DNA of 24,989 nt from a virus (taxonomy: Duplodnaviria; Heunggongvirae; Uroviricota; Caudoviricetes). Shown one piece after another: positions 1-20,796 of this stretch; within the stretch, counting starts at the first letter, position 1; every line of letters starts with the position of its first letter. A program made the translations under genes and the position numbers. The notes beneath the pieces are model-generated. The model saw nothing but the letters and a program-made list of their open reading frames with translations. It was not told the origin of the DNA and did not search any database. The DNA lies in IMG/VR virus record IMGVR_UViG_2619619133_000007; one strand, 5' to 3'.

Positions 1-1284
1 TTACTTCTTCGCCTCTGCAACCACTTTACTACCCACGCCGCGGTTATTGTATTCCCACATGCGGTTGTAGTTAGTGTCATTCAGATTGCGCTGTATTTCG
101 TCGTTATCATCTACGCTGCCGGTATTACCCGCAAACGGACGATTAGAGATCACCGCATCGGCCCACGGTTTAGCCGTGTTAAAACCTTCGTTGATGGCGC
201 TATCACGGATCACCACCTGACCGTTGGTATTGGCATCAACATCCAGCGAGCGGCCCAGTTGCGCCACACCATCACCGAAAGCATTGAAACGGCTGTTTAC
301 GGCGAGGAAACCGTAGTAAATGTTGGACAGCGTAGCCGGTGCAAACACATACGCTTCTTGCTGAGTACGTGAGTTCACCACGCGGAATTCGGTGTTATCG
401 AACACCACTGCGCCGCGACCAGAAACGATATCCACATCCCCTTCAATGTAGCTGTTGGTCACCAGCGTACGCGGCTGACGATTTGTTTCCAGACGGTTCT
501 GCACACCGCTGTTGGTGACAAAGAAGGTGTTCTGACGACCGAGAATGTTAACGTTGTTAATCTGTACCTGGTCACCATCAGTACGCAGTGCCACCGCCGG
601 ATGGTTACCTGCATCTACGCTATCGCCCAGCGTGTTTTCGATGGTCAGATTTTGCAGTTGCAGGCCATTGTTTTGTGACCAGAAGACCGCAGAGCAGAGA
701 ACACCGATACTGTCGCTGCGTTTGCTCTGGCAGCTATCGTACATATACCACGCTGGTTTACCTGGCATATATTTGCCGCGCGGGTTGACGTCGTGACGCC
801 AGTCGGCAGGGCTCATGCCACCATCAAGGGAAAGCCCAATCTTCACATCAATCGGTTTTTCACCTGTACCGTACAGAGTAATTCCACCCGGAGCGGCAGG
901 GACATATACCGTTCCCTGATACTCACCAGGCATCACGGCAATATACTGGCGCTTGTTGGTACGCTTGATAATTGCCGCATCTACCGCCGCCTGAATCGTG
1001 GTATGCGTTACACCTTGAGTGCCCGCCGGGCCGACAACAAAGTCAGGTTGCGCAGGCAGGGTAATCGGGGAAGGATTCCACGCTGCAGCACCTGGTGTCA
1101 GGGATGCAAAATAGTGTTGAGCATCGAAATTCTGCGCTTCTTTTGCCGACAGAATCGGGCGAGAAGAGGTACCAGGCGCGGTTTGATCAGAAGGACGTTG
1201 ATCGGGCGGGGTTGAGCTACAGGCGGTCAGCGTCACGCCAAAAGCCAATGCCAGCGCCAGACGGGAAACTGAAAATGTGTTCAC
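1..1284 (-). CDS. ybhC: Host outer-membrane lipoprotein YbhC (pectinesterase-family), complete, GTG start
   Basis: 427-aa ORF with signal peptide and lipobox (LTAC); matches remembered E. coli YbhC in length and sequence; lies immediately outside attL. Confidence 0.85.
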   Translation of the reverse strand: MNTFSVSRLALALAFGVTLTACSSTPPDQRPSDQTAPGTSSRPILSAKEAQNFDAQHYFASLTPGAAAWNPSPITLPAQPDFVVGPAGTQGVTHTTIQAAVDAAIIKRTNKRQYIAVMPGEYQGTVYVPAAPGGITLYGTGEKPIDVKIGLSLDGGMSPADWRHDVNPRGKYMPGKPAWYMYDSCQSKRSDSIGVLCSAVFWSQNNGLQLQNLTIENTLGDSVDAGNHPAVALRTDGDQVQINNVNILGRQNTFFVTNSGVQNRLETNRQPRTLVTNSYIEGDVDIVSGRGAVVFDNTEFRVVNSRTQQEAYVFAPATLSNIYYGFLAVNSRFNAFGDGVAQLGRSLDVDANTNGQVVIRDSAINEGFNTAKPWADAVISNRPFAGNTGSVDDNDEIQRNLNDTNYNRMWEYNNRGVGSKVVAEAKK

Positions 1285-1330
1285 AGGTTGCTCCGGGCTA
1301 TGAAATAGAAAAATGAATCCGTTGAAGCCT

Positions 1331-1425
1331 GCTTTTTTATACTAAGTTGGCATTATAAAAAAGCATTGCTTATCAATTTGTTGCAACGAACAGGTCACTA
1401 TCAGTCAAAATAAAATCATTATTTG
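1331..1425. other. attL: attL (B-O-P'): 15-bp core GCTTTTTTATACTAA at 1331-1345 plus P' arm with Int arm-type sites (CAGGTCACTATCAGTCAAAAT)
   Basis: Exact lambda core and P' arm sequence read directly; bacterial arm on the ybhC side. Confidence 0.9.
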
Positions 1426-2489
1426 ATTTCAATTTTGTCCCACTCCCTGCCTCTGTCATCACGATACTGTGATGCCATGGTGTCCGACTTATGCCCGAGA
1501 AGATGTTGAGCAAACTTATCGCTTATCTGCTTCTCATAGAGTCTTGCAGACAAACTGCGCAACTCGTGAAAGGTAGGCGGATCCCCTTCGAAGGAAAGAC
1601 CTGATGCTTTTCGTGCGCGCATAAAATACCTTGATACTGTGCCGGATGAAAGCGGTTCACGACGAGTAGATGCAATTATGGTTTCTCCGCCAAGAATCTC
1701 TTTGCATTTATCAAGTGTTTCCTTCATTGATATCCCGAGAGCATCAACATGCAATGTTGTTGGGATGGCAATTTTTACGCCTGTTTTGCTTTGCTCGACA
1801 TAAAGATATCCATCTACGATATCAGACCACTTCATTTCGCATAAATCACCAACTCGTTGCCCGGTAACAACAGCCAGTTCCATTGCAAGTCTGAGCCAAC
1901 ATGGTGATGATTCTGCTGCTTGATAAATTTTCAGGTATTCGTCAGCCGTAAGTCTTGATCTCCTTACCTCTGATTTTGCTGCGCGAGTGGCAGCGACAGG
2001 GTTTGTTGTTATATGGCCTTCAGCTATTGCCTCTCGGAATGCATCGCTCAGTGTTGATCTGATTAACTTGGCTGACGCCGCCTTGCCCTCGTCTATGTAT
2101 CCATTGAGCATTGCCGCAATTTCTTTTGTGGTGATGTCTTCAAGTGGAGCATCAGGCAGACCCCTCCTTATTGCTTTAATTTTGCTCATGTAATTTATGA
2201 GTGTCTTCTGCTTGATTCCTCTGCTGGCCAGGATTTTTTCGTAGCGATCAAGCCATGAATGTAACGTAACGGAATTATCACTGTTGATTCTCGCTGTCAG
2301 AGGCTTGTGTTTGTGTCCTGAAAATAACTCAATGTTGGCCTGTATGGCTTCAGTGATTGCGATTCGCCTGTCTCTGCCTAATCCAAACTCTTTACCCGTC
2401 CTTGGGTCCCTGTAGCAGTAATATCCATTGTTTCTTATATAAAGGTTAGGGGGTAAATCCCGGCGCTCATGACTTCGCCTTCTTCCCAT
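1419..2489 (-). CDS. int: Lambda integrase (tyrosine recombinase)
   Basis: 356-aa ORF essentially identical to remembered lambda Int (MGRRRSHERRDLPPNLYIRNNGYYCYRDPRTGKEFGLGRDRRIA...). Confidence 0.95.
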   Translation of the reverse strand: MGRRRSHERRDLPPNLYIRNNGYYCYRDPRTGKEFGLGRDRRIAITEAIQANIELFSGHKHKPLTARINSDNSVTLHSWLDRYEKILASRGIKQKTLINYMSKIKAIRRGLPDAPLEDITTKEIAAMLNGYIDEGKAASAKLIRSTLSDAFREAIAEGHITTNPVAATRAAKSEVRRSRLTADEYLKIYQAAESSPCWLRLAMELAVVTGQRVGDLCEMKWSDIVDGYLYVEQSKTGVKIAIPTTLHVDALGISMKETLDKCKEILGGETIIASTRREPLSSGTVSRYFMRARKASGLSFEGDPPTFHELRSLSARLYEKQISDKFAQHLLGHKSDTMASQYRDDRGREWDKIEIK

Positions 2490-2685
2490 TTCTGATCCTC
2501 TTCAAAAGGCTACCTGTTACTGGTCGATTTAAGTCAACCTTTACCGCTGATTCGTGGAACAGATACTCTCTTCCATCCTTAACCGGAGGAGGGAATATCC
2601 TGCACTCGCGTACCCATCGACGAACTGTTTCAAGGCTTCTTGGGCGTCGCTGGCGTGCGTTCCACTCCTGAAGTGTCAAGTACAT
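2467..2685 (-). CDS. xis: Excisionase
   Basis: 72-aa ORF matching lambda Xis (MYLTLQEWNARQRRPRSLETVRRWVRE...); overlaps int start as in lambda. Confidence 0.95.
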   Translation of the reverse strand: MYLTLQEWNARQRRPRSLETVRRWVRECRIFPPPVKDGREYLFHESAVKVDLNRPVTGSLLKRIRNGKKAKS

Positions 2686-2710
2686 CGCAAAGTCTCCGCA
2701 ATTACACGCA

Positions 2711-2732
2711 AGAAAAAACCGCCATCAGGCGG
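2711..2732 (-). terminator. Putative intrinsic terminator (minus strand): CCGCC/GGCGG hairpin followed by T6
   Basis: Stem CCGCC-ATCA-GGCGG at 2719-2732 with A6 on plus strand (T6 on minus) at 2713-2718; overlaps stop of the 55-aa ORF. Confidence 0.5.
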
Positions 2733-2892
2733 CTTGGTGTTCTTTCAGTTCTTCAATTCGAATATTGGTTACGTCTGCATGTGCTATCTGCGCCCACAGC
2801 ATCCAGTGGTCATAGCAGTCGCTGATGTTCTCGGCTTCGATAACTCTGTTGAATGGTTCTCCATTCCATTCCCCTGTGCCTCGGAAGTGCAT
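2725..2892 (-). CDS. Small hypothetical protein (55 aa), lambda-like ORF immediately upstream of xis
   Basis: Hand-translated minus-strand ORF MHFRGTGEWNGEPFNRVIEAENISDCYDHWMLWAQIAHADVTNIRIEELKEHQAA, below the 60-aa cutoff of the ORF track; spacing to xis (40 nt) matches what I recall for a 55-aa lambda ORF. Confidence 0.45.
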   Translation of the reverse strand: MHFRGTGEWNGEPFNRVIEAENISDCYDHWMLWAQIAHADVTNIRIEELKEHQAA

Positions 2893-2930
2893 TTATCATC
2901 CCAAAAAAACAAACCCCGCCGTAGCGAGTT

Positions 2931-2963
2931 CAGATAAAAGAAATCCTCGTCAGTGCGAGGATG
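2931..2963 (-). terminator. Putative intrinsic terminator (minus strand) at boundary of accessory cassette
   Basis: 7-bp stem ATCCTCG/CGAGGAT (2944-2963) with T-rich run on minus strand (revcomp of 2931-2943). Confidence 0.4.
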
Positions 2964-3134
2964 CTGTTCATTGCTGCTATACACTTTTTTGCTCTCAACG
3001 TAAGCGGTAGCCCATTCTGTTGGGTTGGTGCAGTTGCTTTTAGGAAATGCTATTTACCCCTTAAATGTCGGCTGAAAGAGCTAAAATCCATGCAAAAAAT
3101 TTACGCAATTTTGTGTATTATTGTGCAGTAAGTA

Positions 3135-3737
3135 ATGAGCTATTTTCTGCGCAAAAAATGGATGGTAAATTTGTCCGGGTCAGGAAAAATTTTATGGGCG
3201 CTAAACATGAAAAAAGATTCGTATCCTTATTTGATTTGCATGACAGTTTCAGGGCTGATCTTTATTTTCCTTTTCTTCTGGTGGCGGGCAGATATCTACA
3301 GGGTCACGTTTCTTAATCAGAGTATATCCCACTATTACATTCTGTTTAGCATGGGAATAGCTTTTCTGTTATCTCTGTTTTGGGTTAAGAAGGGGATAGT
3401 AAAACAAAGAGGCTGGAAGAGTCTGTCAGCATACCTTAAGGTTTATGCAGGGATGTGCATATTTGCTGGATTTTTTCTGATTATACCCCTTACGACACTA
3501 ACTTATTTTTTGCCTGGAGAGACATCGTCTTATGTTGCACCGTATCGGTATACTTCCGGTAGTTCAAAAAGTTGTTCTGGAGCTGAGGTGGATGACCCCG
3601 ATCTACATGAGAATATTCGCATTTGCTATCCGTATGGCAATTATGAGTACGATAATATTATCTATGTTGAAAAGAAAATTAATATATTAGGTGCGGTAGT
3701 GACATATGCACAGACCGCGCGTGATGATACTGAATGA
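3135..3737 (+). CDS. Hypothetical membrane protein (about 3 predicted TM helices plus ~80-aa C-terminal soluble region); accessory (moron-like) gene; start codon uncertain (in-frame ATGs at 3135, 3162, 3207)
   Basis: 200-aa ORF on strand opposite to the flanking early-left genes, in a markedly AT-rich segment; hydrophobic stretches LICMTVSGLIFIFLFFWW, ILFSMGIAFLLSLFWV, VYAGMCIFAGFFLIIPLTTL; followed by hairpin terminator; no family recognised. Confidence 0.55.
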   Translation: MSYFLRKKWMVNLSGSGKILWALNMKKDSYPYLICMTVSGLIFIFLFFWWRADIYRVTFLNQSISHYYILFSMGIAFLLSLFWVKKGIVKQRGWKSLSAYLKVYAGMCIFAGFFLIIPLTTLTYFLPGETSSYVAPYRYTSGSSKSCSGAEVDDPDLHENIRICYPYGNYEYDNIIYVEKKINILGAVVTYAQTARDDTE

Positions 3738-3771
3738 TATAGTATATAGCGGGCAAGTTTTAGTTAATTTA

Positions 3772-3809
3772 TCGAGGTAATATAATTTACCTCGACTCGT
3801 TTGTTCTGG
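3772..3809 (+). terminator. Putative intrinsic terminator for the accessory gene
   Basis: Perfect 9-bp stem TCGAGGTAA/TTACCTCGA (3772-3795) followed by CTCGTTTGTTCT. Confidence 0.5.
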
Positions 3810-3947
3810 TATTAATATTTCGCTTTACGACCGATTTTTATCTGATGATATCATGCGGTTTTCATATACTGACTTACTGTCTTTTCTCCGTTAGCGATTT
3901 TCTCCTGCTCAGCGATGATTTTATCTTTGGCTTCTAGTTAATTTCGC

Positions 3948-4169
3948 TCACTTCGAACCTCTCTGTTTACTGATAAGCTCCAGATCCTCCTGGCAACTTG
4001 CACAAGTCCGACAACCCTGAACGACCAGGCGTCTTCGTTCATCTATCGGATCGCCACACTCACAACAATGAGTGGCAGATATAGCCTGGTGGTTCAGGCG
4101 GCGCATTTTTATTGCTGTGTTGCGCTGTAATTCTTCAATTTCTGATGCTGAATCAATGATGTCTGCCAT
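3948..4169 (-). CDS. TraR/DksA-family C4 zinc-finger protein (lambda Orf73-like)
   Basis: 73-aa ORF with CxxC...CxxC motif (CCECGDPIDERRRLVVQGCRTCASC), characteristic of TraR/DksA family. Confidence 0.75.
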   Translation of the reverse strand: MADIIDSASEIEELQRNTAIKMRRLNHQAISATHCCECGDPIDERRRLVVQGCRTCASCQEDLELISKQRGSK

Positions 4170-4267
4170 CTTTCATTAATCCCTGAATTGTTGGTTAATA
4201 CGCTTGAGGGTGAATGCGAATAATAAAAAAGGAGCCTGTAGCTCCATGATGATTTTGTTTTTCATGC

Positions 4268-4453
4268 TCACCGTTCCTTAAAGACGCCGTTTAACATGCC
4301 GATCGCCAGGCTTAAATGAGTCGGTGTGAATCCCATCAGCGTTACCGTTTCGCGGTGCTTCTTCAGTACGCTACGGCAAATGTCATCGACGTTTTTATCC
4401 GGAAACTGCTGTCTGGCTTTTTTGATTTCAGAATTAGCCTGACGGGCAATACT
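4268..4453 (-). CDS. Small early-left protein, lambda orf61-like (start at internal Met MTHQQENAL...)
   Basis: ORF track 4268..4549; conserved lambda-like sequence and 186-nt length from internal ATG. Confidence 0.6.
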   Translation of the reverse strand, partial: SIARQANSEIKKARQQFPDKNVDDICRSVLKKHRETVTLMGFTPTHLSLAIGMLNGVFKER

Positions 4454-4559
4454 GCGAAGGGCGTTTTCTTGCTGATGTGTCATTGAACAAGTCCCATGTC
4501 GGCAAGCATAAGCACACAGAATATGAAGCCCGCTGCCAGAAAAATGCATTCAGTGGTTG

Positions 4560-4751
4560 TCATACCTGGTCTCTCTCATCTGCTTCTGCTTTCGCCACCA
4601 TCATTTCCAGCTTTTGTGAAAGGGATGCGGCTAACGTATGAAATTCTTCGTCTGTTTCTACTGGTATTGGCACAAACCTGACTCCAATTTGAGCGAGGCT
4701 ATGTGCCATCTCAATGCTCGTTCTTAACTCAACAGGAGATGCTTTGTGCAT
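4560..4751 (-). CDS. Small early-left protein, lambda orf63-like
   Basis: 63-aa ORF; position and length match lambda PL-operon ORF between orf61 and orf60a. Confidence 0.6.
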   Translation of the reverse strand: MHKASPVELRTSIEMAHSLAQIGVRFVPIPVETDEEFHTLAASLSQKLEMMVAKAEADERDQV

Positions 4752-4906
4752 ACAGCTCCCCGTTTATTATTTATCTCCTCAGCCAGCCGCTGTGCTTTCA
4801 GGGGATTTCGGGTAACAGAAAGGCCGGGAAATACCCAGCCTCGCTTTGTAACGGAGTAGACGAAAGTGATCGCGCCTACCCGGATATTATCGTGAGGATG
4901 CTTCAT
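4724..4906 (-). CDS. Small early-left protein, lambda orf60a-like
   Basis: ORF 4724..4912; second Met gives the 60-aa lambda-length product overlapping exo stop by 4 nt. Confidence 0.6.
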
Positions 4907-5583
4907 CGCCATTGCTCCCCAAATACAAAACCAATTTCAGCCAGTGCCTCGTCCATTTTTTCGATGAACTCCGGCACCATCTCGTCAAAACTCGCCATGT
5001 ACTTTTCATCCCGCTCAACCACGACATAATGCAGGCCTTCACGCTTCATACGCGGGTCATAGTTGGCAAAGTACCAGGCATCTTTTCGCGTCACCCACAT
5101 GCTGTACTGCACCTGGGCCATGTAAGCCGACTTTATGGCCTCGAAACCACCGAGCCGGAACTTCATGAAATCCCGGGAGGTAAACGGGCATTTCAGCTCA
5201 AGGCCATTGCCGTCACTGCATAAACCATCGGGAGAGCAGGCGGTGCGCATACTTTCGTCGCGATAGATGATCGGGGATTCAATAACATTTACGCCGGAAG
5301 TGAACTCAAACAGGGTTCTGGCGTCGTTCTCGTACTGTTTTCCCCAGGCCAGCGCTTTAGCGTTAACTTCCGGAGCCACACCGGTGCAAACCTCAGCCAG
5401 CAGGGTGTGGAAGTAGGACATTTTCATGTCAGGCCACTTCTTTCCTGATCGGGGCTTTGCTATCACGTTGTGAACTTCTGAAGCGGTGATGACGCCGAGC
5501 CGTAATTTGTGCCATGCATCATCCCCCTGTTCGACAGCTCTCACGTCGATCCCGGTACGCTGCAGGATAATGTCCGGTGTCAT
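4903..5583 (-). CDS. exo: Lambda exonuclease (Red-alpha)
   Basis: 226-aa ORF near-identical to remembered lambda Exo. Confidence 0.95.
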
Positions 5584-6365
5584 GCTGCCACCTTCTGCTC
5601 AGTGGCTTTCTGTTTCAGGAATCCAAGAGCTTTCACTGCTTCGGCCTGTGTCAGTTCTGACGATGCGCGAATGTCGCGGCGAAATATCTGGGAACAGAGC
5701 GGCAATAAGTCGTCATCCCATGTTTTATCCAGGGCGATCAGCAGAGTGTTAATCTCCTGCATGGTTTCATCGTTAACCGGAGTGATGTCGCGTTCTGGCT
5801 GACGTTCTGCAGTGTATGCAGTATTTTCGACAATGCGCTCGGCTTCATCCTTGTCATAGATACCAGCAAATCCGAAGGCCAGACGGGCACACTGAATCAT
5901 GGCTTTATGCCGTAACATCCGTTTGGGATGCGACTGCCACGGCCCCGTGATTTCTCTGCCTTCGCGAGTTTTGAATGGTTCGCGGCGGCATTCATCCATC
6001 CATTCGGTAACGCAGATCGGATGATTACGGTCCTTGCGGTAAATCCGGCATGTACAGGATTCATTGTTCTGCTCAAAGTCCATGCCATCAAACTGCTGGT
6101 TTTCATTGATGATGCGGGACCAGCCATCAACGCCCACCACCGGAACGATGCCGTTCTGCTTATCAGGGAAGGCGTAAATTTCTTTCGTCCACGGATTAAG
6201 GCCGTACTGGTTGGCGACGATCAACAATGCGATGAACTGCGCATCGCTGGCATCACCTTTAAATGCCGTCTGGCGAAGAGTGGTGATCAGTTCCTGTGGG
6301 TCGACAGAATCCATGCCGACACGTTCAGCCAGCTTCCCTGCCAGCGTTGCGAGTGCTGTACTCAT
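5580..6365 (-). CDS. bet: Bet single-strand annealing protein (Red-beta)
   Basis: 261-aa ORF matching lambda Bet ([59 protein letters not shown]...). Confidence 0.95.
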
Positions 6366-6370
6366 CCGTT

Positions 6371-6667
6371 TTATACCTCTGAATCAATATCAACCTGGTG
6401 GTGAGCAATGGTTTCAACCATGTACTGGATGTGTTCTGCCATGCGCTCCTGAAACTCAACATCGTCATCAAACGCACGGGTAATGGCTTTTTTGCTGGCC
6501 CCGTGGCGTTGCAAATGATCGATGCATAGCGATTCAAACAGGTGCTGGGGCAGGCCTTTTTCCATGTCGTCTGCCAGTTCTGCCTCTTTCTCTTCACGGG
6601 CGATCTGCTGGTAGTGACGCGCCCAGCTCTGAGCCTCAAGACGATCCTGAATGTAATAAGCGTTCAT
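6371..6667 (-). CDS. gam: Gam, RecBCD inhibitor (98-aa short form only)
   Basis: Matches lambda GamS; good RBS (AGGAGG); upstream in-frame region has no start codon before a stop, so no long GamL form. Confidence 0.9.
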
Positions 6668-6742
6668 GGCTGACCTCCTGAAAATGGCTGTGAAAATATC
6701 GCCCGCGAAATGCCAGGCTGATTAGGAAAACAGGAAAGGGGA

Positions 6743-7033
6743 TTAGTGATTCAGGCCGTTACCGCGTCCGTCGAGAAAAACTTCCACGAGCAAATCACGG
6801 GTATAAGTGCGCTCGATGCCGCGATGCAGATAAAGCCGTCCGCGTAAATTAGCTGATGCAGTCCAGGTACCATCTTTGTGTTTGACCAGCATTCCTGGCA
6901 TGACCGCACCTCGATTAACGGTCTGCGTTCCATAATGTTGATGAACCATAAAAACTCCTGCCCGTAAGCTGGGCTGCTGAACATATAGAGACTTCTGCGC
7001 GTATTCAGGCGGTGGATGGCCGCCGGTTGTCAT
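6743..7033 (-). CDS. Hypothetical protein at the kil position; possibly Kil/KilR-like host cell-division inhibitor; start uncertain (internal Met at about 6949 possible)
   Basis: 96-aa ORF first downstream of the leftward early promoter; motif [20 protein letters not shown] resembles my recollection of prophage KilR-type proteins; an overlapping alternative frame (6751..6984) cannot be excluded. Confidence 0.4.
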
Positions 7034-7226
7034 AACTAAGCCGCCTCGTTGAAGCGACTAAGGTATGAAATGTTGAGTTAATTTCAGCTGGTCACACCGA
7101 CGTTCACGCGTCCGTTTCACCCCTCGCACTCCCCGAAGCCTGCTGAAATTCAAACTGCGGATCTAAGCGGTCATCGCAACGGTGAATCAGGTAGTTGCCG
7201 TATCGTTGTGTTGTTGCGATGAACTT

Positions 7227-7256
7227 ATTTAAAACTATAGTTGTTTTATCGTCAAC
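7227..7256 (-). promoter_or_regulatory. Putative leftward early promoter (PL-like) with overlapping operator repeats
   Basis: On minus strand -35 TTGACG (plus 7251-7256) and -10 TTAAAT (plus 7227-7232); overlapping AAAACAACTATAG and AACAAC/GTTGTT repeats shared with the rightward promoter region. Confidence 0.5.
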
Positions 7257-7392
7257 AACAAAAGTTGTTTTATTGGTTGTTTTAGATATAACTGGTTGTA
7301 TTTAGGATGGATTTATTTTGTGACTTGAATCGCATAGCGATAACTGAAGCGAGGTTATGGTGGTTTTTTTAACGGTGTGTGTGATGAGGGGA

Positions 7393-7423
7393 GGGCAAAA
7401 GAAAACCCGGCACGGTGACCGGG
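7393..7423 (-). terminator. Putative intrinsic terminator downstream of the repressor gene
   Basis: Stem CCCGG-CACGGTGA-CCGGG with TTTTCTTTT on the minus strand. Confidence 0.5.
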
Positions 7424-7544
7424 ATTCTTACGCCGTTAGGTAAAGATATTATTGCGGTGGCTTAATATTACTACCTAGAGCAAAGATAGGAATTAGTTCT
7501 TTACTGAATGAGCACAATGCCCAGTTGATAATTTTTAATTGGTA

Positions 7545-8234
7545 CTACCCATGCTTCCTATATGTCTGCGGCATGCTCCCAATAACCTTACCGAAGATGA
7601 ACACCCGGTTCATCTCGTCTTTCTCGATCGGGTCCCACGGTGAGTAGCTTTTGTTATCAGAGATGACCAGCAGCTTATCCTTCATCATTTGCAGGCGCTT
7701 TACATGGGCTGTGTCGTCGTACAGAAACGCATAGATACCATCACCGTCGAAAGATTTAACTGTGATATCAACGAACAGTAGATCACCTGGTTCGATCGTT
7801 CCTGACATGCTGTCACCACGCACGTTAATGATGCGGATATTTTCCGCCTTCCTACCATCGAACATGTGACGAGCATCGTCAAACGAGTACTCAACCGAGC
7901 GTAGAACTTCTACAAACTCACGGTTGATGACTCCCGGCCCAGCACTGACTTCTATATCAAGAACGTCAATCTTGAAGTATTTGGAATGGCTGACAGTTGA
8001 TTGTATTGGTTGCACTGTACTGTCTGACATATTTCCAACGCCAGAAGATAACCATTCTGCGCGCACACCCAAAGCGTTCGCGATCTCCACGATTTTAGTT
8101 GTTTGATTAGCTTTCCCTGTTTCGATTTTCTGAATAGCAGCCTGGCTAACCCCGACCAAATCCCCAAGCGCCTTTTGTGTAAGGCCTCGCGCTAATCTGG
8201 CTTCTTTAAGTCTTTCTGAGAGTGTTGTTTTCAT
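7545..8234 (-). CDS. CI-type prophage repressor (N-terminal XRE-type HTH, C-terminal S24 LexA-like peptidase domain); not lambda immunity
   Basis: Start taken at internal Met MKTTLSERLKEARLARGLTQKALGDLVG; Ala-Gly cleavage site and GDSM serine motif typical of RecA-stimulated autocleaving repressors; divergent from the adjacent cro-like gene. Confidence 0.8.
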   Translation of the reverse strand: MKTTLSERLKEARLARGLTQKALGDLVGVSQAAIQKIETGKANQTTKIVEIANALGVRAEWLSSGVGNMSDSTVQPIQSTVSHSKYFKIDVLDIEVSAGPGVINREFVEVLRSVEYSFDDARHMFDGRKAENIRIINVRGDSMSGTIEPGDLLFVDITVKSFDGDGIYAFLYDDTAHVKRLQMMKDKLLVISDNKSYSPWDPIEKDEMNRVFIFGKVIGSMPQTYRKHG

Positions 8235-8275
8235 AGTCCAAATGTACAACCAAGGTTTTATTCCATCAAACGAAA

Positions 8276-8311
8276 ATGGTTGTTGACTAAAAACAACCAT
8301 AGTTTTAATCT
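8276..8311 (+). promoter_or_regulatory. Putative rightward early promoter (PR-like) and operator: inverted repeat ATGGTTGTT-N7-AACAACCAT overlapping -35 TTGACT
   Basis: Perfect 9-bp inverted repeat at 8276-8300; -35 TTGACT at 8283-8288, candidate -10 TAATCT at 8306-8311; cro-like gene starts 8339 with GGAGG RBS. Confidence 0.55.
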
Positions 8312-8338
8312 TGATTCAAATTAACCACGGAGGTTGTT

Positions 8339-8569
8339 ATGAACCCAGCTATCAAAACAGCGATCAATATCGTTGGTTCACAAAAGAAACTGGGCGCTGC
8401 TTGCGAAGTTTCACAGCAGGCCGTCTATAAGTGGCTTCACAACAAAGCAAAGGTATCCCCTGAACATGTCGGCAGCATTGTTACGGCTACTGGTGGAGTA
8501 GTGAAGGCATACCAGATTCGCCCGGATCTTCCGAAGTTGTTTCCACACACCGAAAAGAACGCAGCTTAA
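8339..8569 (+). CDS. Cro-like small HTH regulator (YdaS-like)
   Basis: 76-aa ORF divergent from repressor, strong RBS; HTH-like segment LGAACEVSQQAVYKWL. Confidence 0.7.
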   Translation: MNPAIKTAINIVGSQKKLGAACEVSQQAVYKWLHNKAKVSPEHVGSIVTATGGVVKAYQIRPDLPKLFPHTEKNAA

Positions 8570-8638
8570 ATTTCCATTTCACGCTCTTTAACAATAAGCA
8601 ATCAACTTAACAGTCAATTCAAACTAAAGGAGTCAATT

Positions 8639-9178
8639 ATGCAACCACTTACATACCAACAGACTAGCGGATTTAGCCCGACTGCGGTGATAAATCGTTC
8701 TCAAACAAAACAGGTGCCAGGCCACGAAAAAATCCGTGATGCCGTCCGCGCCTGGTCGGCTGTAGATAATCAGGATGTCGTTGCCACACTCATTGTGAAT
8801 GAGTATCGGGAGCAGGGCGGCGGCACCATCGATTTCCCTGATGATGTCAGCCGTGCACGCCAGAAGCTGTTCCGCTTCCTCGATAACAAATTCGATTCTG
8901 AAAAATACCGAAATAACGTGCGTGAACTGACCCCGGCAATTCTGGCGGTACTACCGCTGGAATATCGCGGTTACCTGGTTGAGCAGGATAGCTTCATGGC
9001 TAGGTTGGCTGAAATGGAAAAGGAACTCAGTGAGGCAAAACAGGCTGTCATTCTCAACGCACCACGCCACCAGAAACTGAAGGAAATTAGTGAAGGTATT
9101 GTGTCGATGTTTCGTGTGGACCCAGATCTGGCTGGTCCATTGATGGCGATGGTTACTACCATGCTGGGGGCGATATGA
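8639..9178 (+). CDS. YdaT-family protein (proposed CII functional analogue in Rac-type immunity regions), putative
   Basis: 179-aa ORF directly after cro-like gene with strong RBS (AAGGAG); segments EYREQGGG and TPAILAVLP resemble what I recall of E. coli YdaT; family assignment from memory only. Confidence 0.45.
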   Translation: MQPLTYQQTSGFSPTAVINRSQTKQVPGHEKIRDAVRAWSAVDNQDVVATLIVNEYREQGGGTIDFPDDVSRARQKLFRFLDNKFDSEKYRNNVRELTPAILAVLPLEYRGYLVEQDSFMARLAEMEKELSEAKQAVILNAPRHQKLKEISEGIVSMFRVDPDLAGPLMAMVTTMLGAI

Positions 9179-9264
9179 CAGGTTCAGAAATGGCGAAAGC
9201 CGGTCTGCTGGAACAGAACCGACTTTCAGGTGCAAATCGTAACACACTCATTGCGGGAGGAATT

Positions 9265-10194
9265 ATGGCAAACACTGCTGAGATATTCAATTTTCCAGTG
9301 CCGGATGCGGCACAAAAGGAGCCGCGCGTGGCAGATCTCGATGATGGTTATACGCGCATTGCAAATGAGTTGCTGGAAGCTGTGATGCTGACCGGATTAA
9401 CACAGCACCAGCTTCTGGTCTTTCTGGCTGTCATGCGCAAAACATATGGCTTTAATAAAAGACTGGATTGGGTGAGCAACGAGCAACTTTCCGAATTGAC
9501 CGGGATATTGCCGCACAAGTGTTCTGCTGCAAAAAGCGTTCTGGTAAAGCGTGGGATTCTTATTCAGAGCGGGCGGAATATCGGCATTAATAATGTGGTC
9601 AGTGAATGGTCAACATTACCCGAATCAGGTAAGAAAAATAAAGTTTACCTGAAAGAGGTAAATTTACCTGAATCAGGTAAGAAAAGTTTACCCAAATCAG
9701 GTAAAGGCGTTTACCCGAATCAGGTAAACACAAAAGACAAACTAACAAAAGACAATATAAAACCTTTTTCGTCCGAGAATTCTGGCGAATCCTCTGACCA
9801 GCCAGAAAACGATCTTCCTGTGGTGAAACCGGATGCTGCAATTCAGAGCGGCAGCAAGTGGGGGACAGCAGAAGACCTGACCGCCGCAGAGTGGATGTTT
9901 GACATGGTGAAGACTATCGCACCATCAGCCAGAAAACCGAATTTTGCTGGGTGGGCTAACGATATCCGCCTGATGCGTGAACGTGACGGACGTAACCACC
10001 GCGACATGTGCGTGCTGTTCCGCTGGGCATGCCAGGACAACTTCTGGTCCGGTAACGTGCTGAGCCCGGCCAAACTCCGCGATAAGTGGACCCAACTCGA
10101 AATCAACCGTAACAAGCAACAGGCAGGCGTGATAGCCAGCAAACCAAAACTCGACCTGACGAACACTGACTGGATTTACGGGGTGGAGCTATGA
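9265..10194 (+). CDS. O: Replication initiator O (lambda O-like; divergent N-terminal DNA-binding domain, lambda-identical C-terminal domain)
   Basis: Start at ATG 9265 with GGGAGG RBS; C-terminal ~110 aa match lambda O (SGSKWGTAEDLTAAEWMFDMVKTIAPSARKPNFAGWANDIRLMRERDG...); contains ori iterons. Confidence 0.9.
   Translation: MANTAEIFNFPVPDAAQKEPRVADLDDGYTRIANELLEAVMLTGLTQHQLLVFLAVMRKTYGFNKRLDWVSNEQLSELTGILPHKCSAAKSVLVKRGILIQSGRNIGINNVVSEWSTLPESGKKNKVYLKEVNLPESGKKSLPKSGKGVYPNQVNTKDKLTKDNIKPFSSENSGESSDQPENDLPVVKPDAAIQSGSKWGTAEDLTAAEWMFDMVKTIAPSARKPNFAGWANDIRLMRERDGRNHRDMCVLFRWACQDNFWSGNVLSPAKLRDKWTQLEINRNKQQAGVIASKPKLDLTNTDWIYGVEL
9616..9728. repeat. Origin iterons inside O: five ~19-bp repeats TTTACC(C/T)(G/A)A(A/T)(T/A)(C/G)AGGTAA(A/G), followed by an AT-rich stretch (9729-9770)
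   Basis: Repeats read directly at 9616-9633, 9644-9662, 9663-9681, 9688-9706, 9710-9728; each is an internal inverted repeat; arrangement is analogous to lambda ori but the sequence differs. Confidence 0.85.
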
Positions 10195-10300
10195 AAAACA
10201 TCGCCGCACAGATGGTTAACTTTGACCGTGAGCAGATGCGTCGGATCGCCAACAACATGCCGGAACAGTACGACGAAAAGCCGCAGGTACAACAGGTACA
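10191..10300 (+). pseudogene. P: Truncated replication gene P (first ~36 codons only)
   Basis: [36 protein letters not shown] matches lambda P N-terminus, start overlaps O stop (ATGA); similarity ends near 10298 and the reading frame terminates shortly after. Confidence 0.85.
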
Positions 10301-10630
10301 GGAAAAGACATCATGCTCGGTAAAACGTATACCAAAGCAGAATGCAAAGCACTCTTGAATAAAGACCTTGCCACTGTCGCCAGACAAATTAACCCGTACA
10401 TCAAAGTCGATATACCGGAAACAACGCGCGGCGCTCTTTACTCATTCGTTTACAACGTGGGTGCTGGCAATTTCAGAACATCGACGCTTCTTCGCAAAAT
10501 AAACCAGGGCGATATCAAAGGCGCATGTGATCAGCTACGTCGCTGGACATATGCTGGCGGTAAGCAATGGAAAGGTCTCATGACTCGTCGTGAGATTGAG
10601 CGTGAAATCTGTTTGTGGGGTCAGCAATGA
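10301..10630 (+). pseudogene. N-terminally truncated phage lysozyme (T4-lysozyme-type endolysin, RrrD-like), C-terminal ~105 aa only
   Basis: ORF 10313..10630 matches the C-terminal part of DLP12-type lysozyme as I remember it; the catalytic N-terminal region is absent because of the P/R deletion junction. Confidence 0.75.
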
Positions 10631-11088
10631 ACAGAGTAACCGCGATTATCTCCGCTCTGGTTATCTGCATCATCGTCTGCCTGTCATGGGCTGTTAATCA
10701 TTACCGTGATAACGCCATTACCTACAAAGCCCAGCGCGACAAAAATGCCAGAGAACTGAAGCTGGCGAACGCGGCAATTACTGACATGCAGATGCGTCAG
10801 CGTGATGTTGCTGCGCTCGATGCAAAATACACGAAGGAGTTAGCTGATGCGAAAGCTGAAAATGATGCTCTGCGTGATGATGTTGCCGCTGGTCGTCGTC
10901 GGTTGCACATCAAAGCAGTCTGTCAGTCAGTGCGTGAAGCCACCACCGCCTCCGGCGTGGATAATGCAGCCTCCCCCCGACTGGCAGACACCGCTGAACG
11001 GGATTATTTCACCCTCAGAGAGAGGCTGATCACTATGCAAAAACAACTGGAAGGAACCCAGAAGTATATTAATGAGCAGTGCAGATAG
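10627..11088 (+). CDS. Rz: Rz inner-membrane spanin (i-spanin)
   Basis: 153-aa ORF from ATG 10627 (overlapping lysozyme stop), N-terminal TM helix, coiled-coil body; matches lambda/DLP12 Rz. Confidence 0.9.
10847..11029 (+). CDS. Rz1: Rz1 outer-membrane lipoprotein spanin (o-spanin), embedded in +1 frame of Rz
   Basis: 60-aa ORF with lipobox LVVVGC and proline-rich region, fully nested within Rz. Confidence 0.9.
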
Positions 11089-11119
11089 AGCTGCCCATAT
11101 CGATGGGCAACTCATGCAA

Positions 11120-11413
11120 TTATTGTGAGCAATACACACGCGCTTCCAGCGGAGTATAAATGCCTAAAGTAATAAAACCGAGAAATCCATTTACGAATGT
11201 TTGCTGGGTTTCTGTTTTAACAACATTTTCTGCGCCGCCACAAATTTGGGCTGCATCAACAGTTTTCTCCTGTCCAATTCCCGAAACGAAGAAATGATGG
11301 GTGATGGTTTCCTTTGGTGTTACTGCTGTCGGTTTGTTTCCAACAGTAAACGTCTGTTGAGCACATCCTGTAATAAGCATTGCCAGAGCGGCAGAAAACA
11401 ACATTTTTTTCAT
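11120..11413 (-). CDS. bor: Bor lipoprotein (serum-resistance-associated lysogenic conversion gene)
   Basis: Start at internal Met MKKMLFSAALAMLITGC (lipobox); 97 aa matching lambda Bor. Confidence 0.9.
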   Translation of the reverse strand: MKKMLFSAALAMLITGCAQQTFTVGNKPTAVTPKETITHHFFVSGIGQEKTVDAAQICGGAENVVKTETQQTFVNGFLGFITLGIYTPLEARVYCSQ

Positions 11414-11774
11414 CTTATTATCCTGCATTGTTAAAAACGGCAGAATCCTATGTGACAACAATTAAACGATAGTTAAATGGATTGATGAAAATTAAAACTA
11501 TATAGGTGGATGCTCAGCCTATTGGAGGAGGGGGGGGCACTCAGAATCCTGTGGAATGAAATAAACCGCTCTTTCTGTCCATTACCCTTTTAGCTGCGCT
11601 GTATCGTCGCCGTATTCCCGCATTAACCATGACCGTAGCCCGACGGGGAATTCCTTCTGCGTGAGTGTGCGGGAATAATCAAAAACGATGCACACCGGGT
11701 TTTACTGTGCTGACAGACGCAGGGTTACCCTCATAGTCGCTTTTCCGGTGCGATGGTGGAAGAAACCGGGATGT

Positions 11775-11969
11775 TTATTCATCATCACTCTGGATTGATG
11801 TATATGCTCTCTTTTCTGACGTTAGTCTCCGACGGCAGGCTTCAATGACCCAGGCTGAGAAATTCCCGGACCCTTTTTGCTCAAGAGCGATGTTAATTTG
11901 TTCAATCATTTGGTTAGGAAAGCGGATGTTGCGGGTTGTTGTTCTGCGGGTTCTGTTCTTCGTTGACAT
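11775..11969 (-). CDS. Small putative ribbon-helix-helix DNA-binding protein (YlcI/DUF3950-like)
   Basis: 64-aa ORF MSTKNRTRRTTTRNIRFPNQMIEQINIALEQKGSGNFSAWVIEACRRRL; family from memory. Confidence 0.55.
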   Translation of the reverse strand: MSTKNRTRRTTTRNIRFPNQMIEQINIALEQKGSGNFSAWVIEACRRRLTSEKRAYTSIQSDDE

Positions 11970-12168
11970 GAGGTTGTCCCGTATTCAGTGTCGCTGATTT
12001 GTATTGTCTGAAGTTGTTTTTACGTTAAGTTGATGCAGATCAATTAATATGATACCTGCGTCATAATTGATTATTTGACGTGGTTTGATGGCGTAGATGC
12101 ACGTTGTGACATGCAGATGATAATTATTATCATTTTGCGGGTCCTTTCCGGCGATCCGACAGGTTACG

Positions 12169-12180
12169 GGGCGGCGACCT
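12169..12180. other. cos: cosN cohesive-end sequence GGGCGGCGACCT (whole cos region about 12100-12360, cosQ upstream, cosB downstream)
   Basis: Sequence identical to the lambda genome termini: ...GGTTACG / GGGCGGCGACCTCGCGGGTTTTCGCTATTTATGAAAATTTTCCGG... Confidence 0.9.
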
Positions 12181-12357
12181 CGCGGGTTTTCGCTATTTAT
12201 GAAAATTTTCCGGTTTAAGGCATTTCCGTTCTTCTTCGTCGTAACTTAATGTTTTTATTTAAAATACCCCCTGAAAAGAAAGGAAACGACAGGTGCTGAA
12301 AACGAGCTTTTGGGCCTCTGTCGTTTCCTTTCTCTGTTTTTGGCCGTGGAATGAACA

Positions 12358-12877
12358 ATGGAAGTCAACAAAAAGCAGCTGGCTGACATTTTCGGTGCGA
12401 GTATCCGTACCATTCAGAACTGGCAGGAACAGGGAATGCCCGTTCTGCGAGGCGGTGGCAAGGGTAATGAGGTGCTTTATGATTCTGCCGCCGTCATAAG
12501 ATGGTATGCCGAAAGGGATGCTGAAATTGAGAACGAAAAGCTGCGCCGGGAAGTTGAAGAACTGCGGCAGGCCAGCGAGACAGATCTCCAGCCAGGGACT
12601 ATTGAGTACGAACGCCATCGACTTACGCGTGCGCAGGCCGACGCACAGGAGCTGAAAAATGCCAGAGACTCCGCTGAAGTGGTGGAAACCGCATTCTGTA
12701 CTTTCGTGCTGTCGCGGATCGCAGGTGAAATTGCCAGTATTCTCGACGGGATCCCCCTGTCGGTGCAGCGGCGTTTTCCGGAACTGGAAAACCGACATGT
12801 TGATTTCCTGAAACGGGATATCATCAAAGCCATGAACAAAGCAGCCGCGCTGGATGAACTGATACCGGGGTTGCTGA

Positions 12878-12903
<26 letters not shown>
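12358..12903 (+). CDS. nu1: Terminase small subunit Nu1
   Basis: 181-aa ORF matching lambda Nu1. Confidence 0.95.
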
Positions 12904-16584
<3,681 letters not shown>

Positions 16585-16604
<20 letters not shown>

Positions 16605-17904
16605 TCTCCCGCATATTGCCAGCATGGCCTTTAATGAGCCGCTGATGCTTGAACCCGCCTATGCGCGGGTTTTCTTTTGTGCGCTTGCAGGCCAGCTTGG
16701 GATCAGCCGCCTGACAGATGCGGTGTCCGGTGACAGCCTGACTGCCCCGGAGGCACCCGCGACGCTGGCGTTATCCGGTGATGATGACGGACCACGACAG
16801 GCCCGCAGTTATCAGGTCATGAACGGCATCGCCGTGCTGCCGGTGTCCGGCACGCTGGTCAGCCGGACGCGAGCGCTGCAGCCGTATTCGGGGATGACCG
16901 GTTACAACGGCATTATCGCCCGTCTGCAACAGGCTGCCAGCGACCCGATGGTGGACGGCATTCTGCTCGATATGGATACGCCAGGCGGGATGGTGGCAGG
17001 GGCATTTGACTGCGCTGACATCATCGCCCGTGTGCGTGACATAAAGCCGGTATGGGCGCTGGCCAATGACATGAACTGCAGTGCAGGGCAGCTGCTTGCC
17101 AGCGCCGCCTCCCGGCGTCTGGTCACGCAGACCGCCCGGACAGGCTCCATCGGCGTCATGATGGCTCACAGTAATTACGGTGCTGCGCTGGAGAAACAGG
17201 GCGTGGAAATCACGCTGATTTACAGCGGCAGCCATAAGGTGGATGGCAACCCCTACAGCCATCTTCCGGATGACGTCCGGGAGACACTGCAGTCCCGGAT
17301 GGATGCAACCCGCCAGATGTTTGCGCAGAAGGTGTCGGCATATACCGGCCTGTCCGTGCAGGCTGTGCTGGATACCGAGGCTGCAGTGTACAGCGGTCAG
17401 GAGGCCATTGATGCCGGACTGGCTGATGAACTTGTCAACAGCACCGATGCGATCACCGTTATGCGTGATGCACTGGATGCACGTAAATCCCGTCTCTCAG
17501 GAGGGCGAATGACCAAAGAGACTCAATCAACAACTGTTTCAGCCACTGCTTCGCAGGCTGACGTTACTGGCGTGGTGCAAGCGACGGAGGGCGAGAACGC
17601 CAGCGCGGCGCAGCCGGACGTGAACGCGCAGATCACCGCAGCGGTTGCGGCAGAAAACAGTCGCATTATGGGGATCCTCAACTGTGAGGAGGCTCACGGA
17701 CGCGAAGAACAGGCTCGCGTGCTGGCCGAAACCCCCGGTATGACCGTGGAAACGGCCCGCCGCATTCTGGCCGCAGCACCACAGAGTGCACAGGCGCGCA
17801 GTGACACTGCGCTGGATCGTCTGATGCAGGGGGCACCGGCACCGCTGGCTGCAGGTAACCCGGCATCTGATGCCGTTAACGATTTGCTGAACACACCAGT
17901 GTAA
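16585..17904 (+). CDS. C: Head maturation protease/scaffold C (GTG start overlapping end of B)
   Basis: 439-aa product from GTG at 16585 matches lambda gpC (MTAELRNLPHIASMAFNEPLMLEPAYARVFF...); the ORF track extends it upstream artefactually. Confidence 0.9.
17299..17904 (+). CDS. nu3: Scaffolding protein Nu3 (in-frame internal start within C)
   Basis: In-frame ATG at 17299 giving the C-terminal 201 codons of C, as in lambda Nu3; start position inferred by analogy. Confidence 0.6.
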   Translation: MDATRQMFAQKVSAYTGLSVQAVLDTEAAVYSGQEAIDAGLADELVNSTDAITVMRDALDARKSRLSGGRMTKETQSTTVSATASQADVTGVVQATEGENASAAQPDVNAQITAAVAAENSRIMGILNCEEAHGREEQARVLAETPGMTVETARRILAAAPQSAQARSDTALDRLMQGAPAPLAAGNPASDAVNDLLNTPV

Positions 17905-17913
17905 GGGATGTTT

Positions 17914-18246
17914 ATGACGAGCAAAGAAACCTTTACCCATTACCAGCCGCTGGGCAACAGTGACCCGGCTCATACCGCAACCGCGCCCGGCGGATTGAGT
18001 AAGAAAACGCCAGCAATGACTCCGTTGATGCCGGATACCTCCACCCGTAAGCTGGTTGCGTGGGATGGCACCACCGACGGTGCTGCCGTTGGCATTCTTG
18101 CTGTTGCTGCTGACCAGACCAGCACCACGCTGACGTTCTACAAGTCCGGCACGTTCCGTTATGAGGATGTGCTCTGGCCGGAGGCTGCCAGCGACGAGGC
18201 GAAAAAACGGACCGCGTTTGCCGGAACGGCAATCAGCATCGTTTAA
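17914..18246 (+). CDS. D: Head decoration protein D
   Basis: 110-aa product from ATG 17914 matches lambda gpD. Confidence 0.95.
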
Positions 18247-18301
18247 CCTGACCCTTCATCACTAAAGGCCGCCTGTGCGGCTTTTTTTACGGGATTTTTT
18301 T

Positions 18302-19327
18302 ATGTCGATGTACACAACCGCCCAGCTGCTGGCGGCAAATGAGCAGAAATTTAAGTTTGATCCGCTGTTTCTGCGTCTCTTTTTCCGTGAGAGCTATCCC
18401 TTCACTACGGAGAAAGTCTATCTCTCACAAATTCCGGGACTGGTAAACATGGCGCTGTACGTTTCGCCGATTGTTTCCGGTGAGGTTATCCGTTCCCGTG
18501 GCGGCTCCACCTCTGAATTTACGCCGGGATATGTCAAACCCAAGCATGAGGTGAATCCGCAGATGACCCTGCGTCGCCTGCCGGATGAAGATCCACAGAA
18601 TCTGGCGGACCCGGCTTACCGCCGCCGTCGCATCATCATGCAGAACATGCGAGACGAAGAGCTGGCCATTGCTCAGGTCGAAGAGATGCAGGCAGTTTCT
18701 GCCGTGCTCAAGGGCAAATACACCATGACCGGTGAAGCCTTCGATCCGGTTGAGGTGGATATGGGCCGCAGTGAAGCGAATAACATCACACAGTCTGGCG
18801 TCACGGAGTGGAGCAAGCGTGACAAGTCCACGTATGACCCGACCGACGATATCGAAGCCTACGCGCTGAACGCCAGCGGCGTGGTGAATATCATCGTGTT
18901 TGACCCGAAAGGCTGGGCGCTGTTCCGTTCCTTCAAAGCCGTCAGGGAGAAGCTGGATACCCGTCGCGGCTCTCATTCCGAACTGGAGACAGCGGTAAAA
19001 GACCTGGGCAAAGCGGTGTCTTATAAGGGAATGTATGGCGATGTGGCCATCGTCGTGTATTCCGGACAGTACGTGGAAAACGGCGTCAAAAAGAACTTCC
19101 TGCCGGACAACACGATGGTGCTGGGTAACACTCATGCACGCGGTCTGCGCACCTATGGCTGTATTCAGGATGCGGATGCATTGAGTGAGGGTATTAATGC
19201 GTCTCCCCGTTATCCGAAAAACTGGAAGACATCCGGCGATCCGGCGCGAGAGTTCACCATGATTCAGTCAGCACCGCTGATGCTGCTGGCTGATCCTGAT
19301 GAGTTCGTGTCCGTTCAACTGGCGTAA
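18302..19327 (+). CDS. E: Major capsid protein E
   Basis: 341-aa product from ATG 18302 matches lambda gpE. Confidence 0.95.
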   Translation: MSMYTTAQLLAANEQKFKFDPLFLRLFFRESYPFTTEKVYLSQIPGLVNMALYVSPIVSGEVIRSRGGSTSEFTPGYVKPKHEVNPQMTLRRLPDEDPQNLADPAYRRRRIIMQNMRDEELAIAQVEEMQAVSAVLKGKYTMTGEAFDPVEVDMGRSEANNITQSGVTEWSKRDKSTYDPTDDIEAYALNASGVVNIIVFDPKGWALFRSFKAVREKLDTRRGSHSELETAVKDLGKAVSYKGMYGDVAIVVYSGQYVENGVKKNFLPDNTMVLGNTHARGLRTYGCIQDADALSEGINASPRYPKNWKTSGDPAREFTMIQSAPLMLLADPDEFVSVQLA

Positions 19328-19368
19328 TCATGGCCCTTCGGGGCCATTTTCTCTCTGTGGAGGAATCC

Positions 19369-19764: not shown

Positions 19765-19775
19765 CGGGAGGCGCT

Positions 19776-20129: not shown

Positions 20130-20140
20130 AAGGGGGATGT

Positions 20141-20680: not shown

Positions 20681-20796
20681 CCGAATCTCATCTCGGCAAG
20701 GAGCTGCTGGAAAAAGTCGATCTGACGGAGGATAACGCCAGCAGACTGGATGAGTTTTCGAAAGAGTGGAAGGACGCTAACGATAAATGGAATGCC

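Follow-up and report, generated by a model that had tools for sequence, protein, structure and literature searches.

The first 36 codons of a lambda-type replication gene P are followed, at positions 10297/10298 of the window (the whole stretch of 24,989 nucleotides that was analysed), by the 3' part of a lysozyme gene, rrrD. With a probability that we put at about 0.93, this junction was left by a single internal deletion in a lambdoid prophage that sits at att-lambda beside ybhC: a break after P codon 36 would have been joined to a break in rrrD codon 55, with the removal of about 7-9 kb. The junction is not a matter of chance, because the match extends for about 10 kb on either side of it, with 98-99% identity; judged by these alignments, it is a real deletion, and it appears to be private to a single clone of gut E. 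coli.

The junction

The joint was placed by a three-way alignment of the window with the P side and the rrrD side, and by the ends of the corresponding BLAST blocks (junction at 10297-10298). Identity with P ends at 10298 and identity with the lysozyme gene begins at 10297, so that the two parents share a 2-bp overlap, TA. The preliminary description of this DNA had put the breakpoint at about 10298, with some 36 codons of P retained upstream and the middle of a T4-type lysozyme gene, in a different frame, downstream; base-level alignment bears it out on each of these counts. Residues 1-36 are 100% identical to those of the 233-aa P of the prophage of E. coli Ceylon31, and the start of P overlaps the stop of O (ATG at 10191, TGA at 10192-10194), yielding the ATGA arrangement of lambda O and P, as had also been claimed. 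On the other side of the joint, residues 56-165 of RrrD are encoded at 10298-10627 with 99.1% identity; alignment to two intact relatives and assignment to GH24 (PF00959) agree with the proposal that the lysozyme is of the DLP12 type.

Since (10298-10191) mod 3 = 2, the rrrD piece lies in the +2 frame relative to P: both genes are broken, P behind codon 36 and rrrD within codon 55, and the join between them is out of frame. What it creates is a 55-aa fusion ORF (10191-10358, + strand) in which 36 P codons are followed by 19 out-of-frame lysozyme codons. This ORF matched no family in a Pfam scan; it has been deposited as a "replication P family protein", and its protein cluster consists of one sequence.

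The prophage and its intact relatives

Judged by its gene content, the element is a lambdoid prophage at att-lambda: it has lambda-like int, xis and red genes, a Rac-like (YdaS/YdaT) immunity region, lambda-type O and P, a DLP12-like nin-Q-lysis region and lambda-like head genes. The lambda att core (attL side) lies at 1331-1345 on the + strand, between ybhC and int, as an exact match to GCTTTTTTATACTAA that was found in 0 of 100 shuffled sequences, and int and xis adjoin ybhC; in the relatives, too, ybhC and int are the neighbours of the site. The early genes int, xis, exo, bet, gam and kil, the gene of an S24 (LexA-like) repressor, a cro-like gene, a YdaT-like gene and O are intact; by ORF length, so are the terminase and head genes from Nu1 to FII.

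A search with the whole window found a collinear prophage in 131 complete E. coli genomes, the best being that of strain Ceylon31. Two intact prophages at att-lambda served as references, those of Ceylon31 (NZ_CP076270; the fetched region is referred to below as L001) and of E. coli PI7 (NZ_CP074033; L005). In BLAST comparison with Ceylon31, window positions 1-10298 correspond to L001 1501-11799 (99.0% identity over 10,299 bp) and positions 10297-20679 to L001 20587-30967 (98.3% over 10,383 bp). The corresponding flank blocks of PI7 are 98.0% and 97.5% identical, and the endpoints of the junction are the same as with Ceylon31. Both flanks are thus collinear with an intact relative and a block is missing between them: 8,789 bp by comparison with Ceylon31, 6,967 bp by comparison with PI7. 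The alignment proposed as a check in the preliminary description accordingly gives one answer with either reference, an internal deletion by which the middle of the lysozyme gene has come to follow P codon 36.

The P-rrrD junction is not the only lesion of this prophage. At a second deletion junction (20679-20680, placed by BLAST block ends), the tail gene Z breaks off at residue 179 of 192 and runs on into the C-terminal part of J; the Z piece covers positions 1-176 of the 190 of PF06763, and the sequence past the junction reads as J. At a third (21276-21280, likewise placed), the J remnant continues in frame into the tail-fibre gene stf, generating a fusion ORF of 843 aa (20797-23328) in which Pfam finds a Phage_Tail_Tip domain and then tail-fibre domains. 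Also gone are U, V, G, T, H, M, L, K, I, most of J, lom and the N-terminus of stf. The prophage is therefore defective several times over, and not by the P-rrrD junction alone. An IS1A after tfa ends the contig, and attR and the right chromosomal flank consequently lie beyond the window.

(Three observations from the wider survey may be entered here. Rfam, applied to the whole window, returned IS009 inside the tail-fibre assembly gene as its only match, and no known antitermination RNA. A 200-aa ORF at 3135-3737 drew nothing from PADLOC or Pfam. The PADLOC matches of the repressor were to generic helix-turn-helix features only, and were set aside.)

What was lost

In Ceylon31 the interval between the two breakpoints begins, at its P end, with the rest of P, ren, emrE and ybcK (a serine recombinase gene), continues with ybcN, ninE, ybcO, rusA, ylcG and the antiterminator gene quuD, and closes, at its lysis end, with a porin gene, the holin gene essD and the first 55 codons of rrrD. 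The core of the PI7 interval, from ybcN to essD, is the same; ybcK is absent from PI7. The size and exact content of what was deleted are accordingly estimates, drawn from two relatives that differ (8.8 vs 7.0 kb).

The remainder of P, the nin region, Q (here quuD) and the holin (essD) had all been described as missing, and by comparison with these two relatives the interval that carries them is indeed absent. Nor have its contents moved elsewhere in the window. The 8.8-kb interval DNA has no nucleotide match there, and when its 17 proteins were compared with the window by tblastn, only P residues 1-36 and RrrD residues 56-165 matched; the 15 others did not. An intact P, Q or holin, any of which would have spoken against the reading of the junction as a deletion, was thus looked for in the window and not found. 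Among the genes of the window there is none with a domain of a Q protein, a holin, a helicase loader or a complete endolysin: the joint leaves both of its genes incomplete, and nothing elsewhere in the window makes up for the functions that are missing. The late promoter would have been lost along with its neighbours, if it occupied the position known from lambda, between Q and the holin gene.

Remnants and retained genes

Upstream of the joint, the replication gene O (9175-10194, + strand, 339 aa, PF04492) is intact and equal in length to that of the intact relative; its iterons, repeats of the "acccgaatcaggtaa" type, are visible in the sequence at about 9610-9730 (+ strand). The P remnant (10191-10298, + strand) comprises codons 1-36 only, 100% identical to P 1-36 of Ceylon31. 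In intact P, the Pfam family PF06992 occupies residues 38-198; it is entirely missing from the remnant, and the 55-aa ORF has no part of it, the DnaB-binding part included.

The 3' remnant of rrrD (10298-10630, + strand) comprises codons 56-165 of a gene whose intact product is 165 aa long (99.1% identity, tblastn). Its first ATG is that of M61, at 10313, from which a 105-aa ORF would be read. The remnant matches PF00959 with E = 1.3e-33, over profile positions 32-125 of 125 only. The endolysins that are true lysozymes have a catalytic triad of the form E-X8-D-X5-T (PMC9239132). In intact RrrD this triad is E35-D44-T50, upstream of the break, and is missing from a remnant that starts at residue 56. 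The Gly/Ala-rich, SAR-like segment of intact RrrD (AVAAAIGGGAIAIASVLI, about residues 8-25) has likewise been deleted. Of the features that define a SAR endolysin of the R21/RrrD type, the remnant thus retains a fragment of PF00959 and neither the triad nor the N-terminal SAR segment. As the triad and the SAR segment all lie upstream of residue 56, the remnant is, by its sequence, a dead gene fragment and not an endolysin.

The spanin genes, by contrast with the lysozyme gene, are whole. Rz (i-spanin; 10627-11088, + strand, 153 aa), whose start overlaps the lysozyme stop codon, covers positions 1-126 of the 126 of PF03245 and has the length of the relatives' rzpD. Nested within it in another frame is the gene of the o-spanin lipoprotein Rz1 (10847-11029, + strand, 60 aa; PF06085, 2.9e-20, positions 1-40 of 41). 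A full-length Rz with a nested, out-of-frame Rz1 makes up a two-component spanin. Convergent with Rz lies a bor/iss lipoprotein gene (11120-11413, - strand; PF06291, Lambda_Bor), which is called "iss" in the annotation of the relatives.

Origin and occurrence of the deletion

What kind of event joined P to rrrD? No IS element, repeat or in-register homology was found within 150 bp either side of the two breakpoints; only out-of-register 6-10-mers, at the level of chance, occur within that distance. The overlap of 2 bp is itself unremarkable: an overlap of at least 2 bp is expected in 16% of random joins between the two breakpoint regions. The junction thus has the marks of an illegitimate deletion, a minimal overlap between ends that lack a repeat, an IS element or an att-like site. 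Because no repeat, IS element or recombination site is found at either end, a single illegitimate joining event, non-homologous or at the level of microhomology, is the most likely origin.

The two parents of an illegitimate joint need not have come from one prophage. P might have recombined with an rrrD gene belonging to another, DLP12-like prophage at a different chromosomal site, in which case the junction would mark a larger chromosomal rearrangement. Partners for such an event are at hand, since E. coli genomes have rrrD-like sequence in a median of 2 places each; Ceylon31 matches the right flank a little less closely than the left (98.3% vs 99.0%); and the window stops in IS1 before attR, which puts the right chromosomal flank out of view. 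However, that same right flank and the late and head region of att-lambda prophages are collinear for 10.4 kb, its tfa-IS1A end is common to the att-lambda prophage of PI7, and a single deletion is the more economical account. We regard recombination with a second prophage as improbable.

An assembly artefact, that is, a chimeric contig made of two prophage fragments, has to be considered in the light of where else the junction is found. A match spanning the junction occurs in 0 of 5,426 complete E. coli genomes and in 0 of 50,697 phage records. The exact junction 40-mer is absent from the GTDB species representatives, and the exact 26-mer from metagenome contigs. Look-up of the exact 55-aa protein found it in three contigs only: GCA_000700245.1, GCA_000700425.1 and the Logan assembly of SRR1186636. 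One of these three assemblies bears the name E. coli 3-373-03_S3_C3. The window is 100% identical to GCA_000700245.1 over 20,168 bp and, by its coordinates, makes up the final 24,989 bases of a contig of 97,070 bp; the other two differ by two small SNP clusters only. The three assemblies probably represent one clone and one study, so that they confirm the sequence and not its independent occurrence. The window comes from a short-read draft assembly, and the modules of lambdoid prophages are repeated within genomes: both circumstances would fit a chimeric contig. Yet two NCBI assemblies have the junction, and so does a Logan assembly, which came from a different pipeline; the 2-bp overlap at the junction offers an assembler no repeat to collapse, and each of its flanks is unique sequence over about 10 kb. 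An artefact is, on this evidence, less probable still than a second prophage.

Serine recombinases exchange strands at a 2-bp core. One such enzyme, YbcK, is encoded within the lost interval of Ceylon31, and the 2-bp overlap at the junction would suit its action on two pseudo-sites with a 2-bp crossover. An overlap of 2 bp is, however, expected by chance in 16% of random joins; the two sites have neither other similarity nor dyad symmetry; PI7 lacks ybcK; and the excision of an integrated element would restore one gene rather than fuse two unrelated ones. The involvement of YbcK is very unlikely. The last alternative, a natural module boundary in a functional phage with other, non-homologous genes of replication, antitermination and lysis, may be given next to no weight: lambdoid phages are mosaic, and the Ceylon31 and PI7 prophages themselves differ in immunity and nin content, but here both genes are cut in mid-domain and joined out of frame, the replacement domains are wanting in the genes of the window, and most tail genes are missing as well.

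The preferred reading remains that of one internal, illegitimate deletion. Its junction appears to be private to one clone, and it is a private mutation rather than a new kind of feature: the grounding of a lambdoid prophage by internal deletion is a textbook event.

Possible transcription across the junction

A probable rightward early promoter can be read from the sequence at 8284-8315 (+ strand; TTGACT-17-TAATCT), overlapped by the palindromic operator ATGGTTGTTGACTAAAAACAACCAT. The preliminary description had pointed out that, with the interval gone, Rz and Rz1 would come to lie directly downstream of the early-right operon; the layout is as claimed, O, the P remnant, the lysozyme remnant and Rz/Rz1 forming a tight and partly overlapping string downstream of this promoter. 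Between the cro-like and YdaT-like genes, at 8583-8594 (+ strand), lies an rrn-type BoxA, GCTCTTTAACAA, the only exact match in the window (of 100 shuffled sequences, 8 have at least one match when 1 mismatch is allowed), in what we take to be the position of nutR in lambda. No boxB-like hairpin was found, and no N-like gene either: the only ORF between the leftward operators and kil encodes 31 aa and is without a Pfam match.

From the rightward early promoter as far as 11929, the + strand has no predicted terminator-like site; the lost interval of Ceylon31 holds at least one good candidate, at L001 13124-13149. (A technical note: these are simple scans, which in the window and in the lost interval alike yield counts no higher than those of shuffled sequence, and both statements are to be read as weak guides.) Past Rz come 1.27 kb that are devoid of a + strand gene and antisense to bor and ylcI, an untranslated stretch in which Rho-dependent termination of unmodified polymerase would be expected. 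Expression of Rz and Rz1 from the rightward early promoter is plausible, given the layout; expression of the head genes from the same promoter is doubtful.

A bolder suggestion can be built on these elements: because the nin-region terminators, Q and the late promoter are gone, and because BoxA lies just downstream of the early promoter, the deletion might have rewired the prophage, with SOS induction leading to termination-resistant early transcription that runs through Rz/Rz1 into the terminase and head genes and yields tail-less capsids or terminase with no lysis, possibly to be used by other lambdoid prophages. We consider this a long shot. If read-through did express the intact head and terminase genes, the prophage would be a useful case of regulatory rewiring by deletion.

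Expected consequences for prophage and host

On established lambda biology, O/P replication, late activation and lysis should all have been lost, as the preliminary description had it. O and the origin have been kept, but DnaB would not be loaded without P, and the prophage would not replicate. With quuD and its late promoter gone, the late operon would not be activated. With the holin gone and the lysozyme remnant deprived of its anchor and its triad, there would be no lysis, and spanins alone do not lyse cells. SOS induction would still have effects: the LexA-like repressor, being intact, should release leftward transcription of kil, gam, bet, exo, xis and int, and a rightward transcript would carry cro, the YdaT-like gene, O, the 55-aa P remnant, the dead lysozyme piece and Rz/Rz1.

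Why might such a deletion persist? Lambda P is toxic, replication from a trapped prophage kills the host, and the survivors are mutated in O or P (PMC3640518). The present deletion would have removed what kills an induced host, namely the toxicity of P, replication from an integrated origin, and lysis, and its carriers would be expected to survive induction. Protection of the host on induction is accordingly a plausible reason for the persistence of the deletion; neutral decay of the prophage is equally compatible with what is seen. The P remnant should not be assumed to be inert, because plasmids that carry O together with 35 or 62 P codons have been reported to be toxic in lambda (PMC3640518): short as it is, it may not be without effect.

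One can look on this as a clean natural deletion that would have taken away at one stroke the functions through which induction kills, namely replication, late activation and lysis. As such it is in keeping with what is generally seen in the decay and domestication of prophages, and it matters little beyond annotation. There the point is a practical one: the 55-aa "replication P family protein" and the 105-aa "lysozyme" of these isolates are best entered as remnants of a deletion, and the prophage scored as defective.

Relation to known systems

The nearest relatives are the Ceylon31 and PI7 prophages, which occupy the same site and share int/xis/red, O, P and the head genes, with identities of 97.5-99.0% (in Ceylon31 the immunity region is the same as well). 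They differ in possessing the full interval from P to rrrD (8.8 or 7.0 kb) and a full set of tail genes, both of which are wanting in the window. The lysozyme remnant, for its part, belongs with the SAR endolysin of phage 21 (R) and RrrD: it is 99% identical to RrrD 56-165, and the lysozyme-Rz DNA is 99.0% identical to R-Rz of phage 21, from whose endolysin the remnant differs in the loss of the N-terminal SAR segment and the E-X8-D-X5-T triad.

As regards the consequence for the host, the closest parallel is with the laboratory survivors of lambda induction, the RK- mutants of Hayes and colleagues (PMC3640518), whose insertions or deletions lie in O or P and in which the loss of P allows the host to survive. 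Those mutants are laboratory constructs, obtained in cI857 fragments by selection at 42 C, whereas the deletion described here is natural and much larger, and any selection behind it is a supposition.

In the names and order of its genes (as given in the RefSeq annotation of the relatives), the lost interval together with the retained 'rrrD-rzpD-bor-nohD corresponds to DLP12 of E. coli K-12, where the order is emrE-ybcK...ybcN-ninE-ybcO-rusA-ylcG-quuD-nmpC-essD-rrrD-rzpD-borD-nohD. Both are lambdoid prophages that have been disabled by deletions. DLP12, which sits at argU, keeps Q, the holin and the lysozyme and is without most early and structural genes. The element at att-lambda, in contrast, keeps int through O as well as the head genes, and the block that it has lost is exactly that of nin, Q and the holin.

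Tail genes and the right end

Two deletion junctions besides the one that joins P to rrrD lie within window positions 20679-21280. The tail gene Z retains 179 of its 192 amino acids and then gives way to a C-terminal part of the tail gene J; of the genes for tail shaft and tip that separate Z from J, the window has none. This piece of J shares only 84.7% identity with J of the related prophages, and its first 116 bases (20680-20795) found no match by BLAST. At 21276-21280 what is left of J continues in frame into the tail-fibre gene stf, and the resulting J'-'Stf open reading frame (20797-23328) specifies 843 amino acids.

The tail-fibre assembly gene, tfa (23328-23909), harbors a plus-strand match (23671-23869; 220.9 bits) to the Rfam candidate small RNA family IS009, and just 3' of it lies a copy of IS1A (about 24200-24989). 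The same tfa-IS1A order is found in 91 complete E. coli genomes, that of PI7 among them. The window and its source contig both stop within IS1A, and attR is consequently not visible.

Comparison with other genomes

Is a shortened lysozyme call diagnostic of the P/rrrD junction? Contigs from many E. coli, 207 in all, are recorded as carrying in identical form the 105-aa product that starts at M61 of RrrD (10313-10630, plus strand), and the 90% cluster that holds this product comprises 1,645 sequences, mostly partial lysozymes. It is thus common for rrrD to be called without its N-terminus or from a wrong start, and such a call alone is no marker of the junction.

The two sibling assemblies that share the junction differ from the window solely in two tight clusters of SNPs, six changes in 43 bp (2872-2914) and two in 13 bp (12483-12495), a pattern that suggests gene conversion over short tracts with another prophage copy as donor, or else noise in the consensus, more than point mutation. 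The two intact relatives are themselves unlike in their ren-to-ybcN cargo: emrE and the serine recombinase gene ybcK in Ceylon31 (L001, its att-lambda prophage region, 12760-14874), a gene for a DUF4145 protein plus a theta-subunit pseudogene in PI7 (L005, the corresponding region, 14301-16374). Their immunity regions also differ, that of PI7 having a SecB/MqsA-like toxin-antitoxin-chaperone set.

The early region

A 200-aa open reading frame (3135-3737, plus strand) between xis and a TraR/DksA-like gene is oriented against the early-left genes around it. Its counterpart in a relative is annotated "hypothetical", and Pfam and PADLOC searches returned no match; it may be a moron.

A perfect rrn-type BoxA, GCTCTTTAACAA, lies between the cro-like and YdaT-like genes (8583-8594, plus strand). 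Within the window, no boxB-like hairpin was found after it, nor any N-like gene downstream from the leftward operators at about 7225-7290. This arrangement could indicate N-independent, BoxA-based antitermination in the Rac-like immunity module of this prophage; the BoxA occupies the position that nutR has in lambda.
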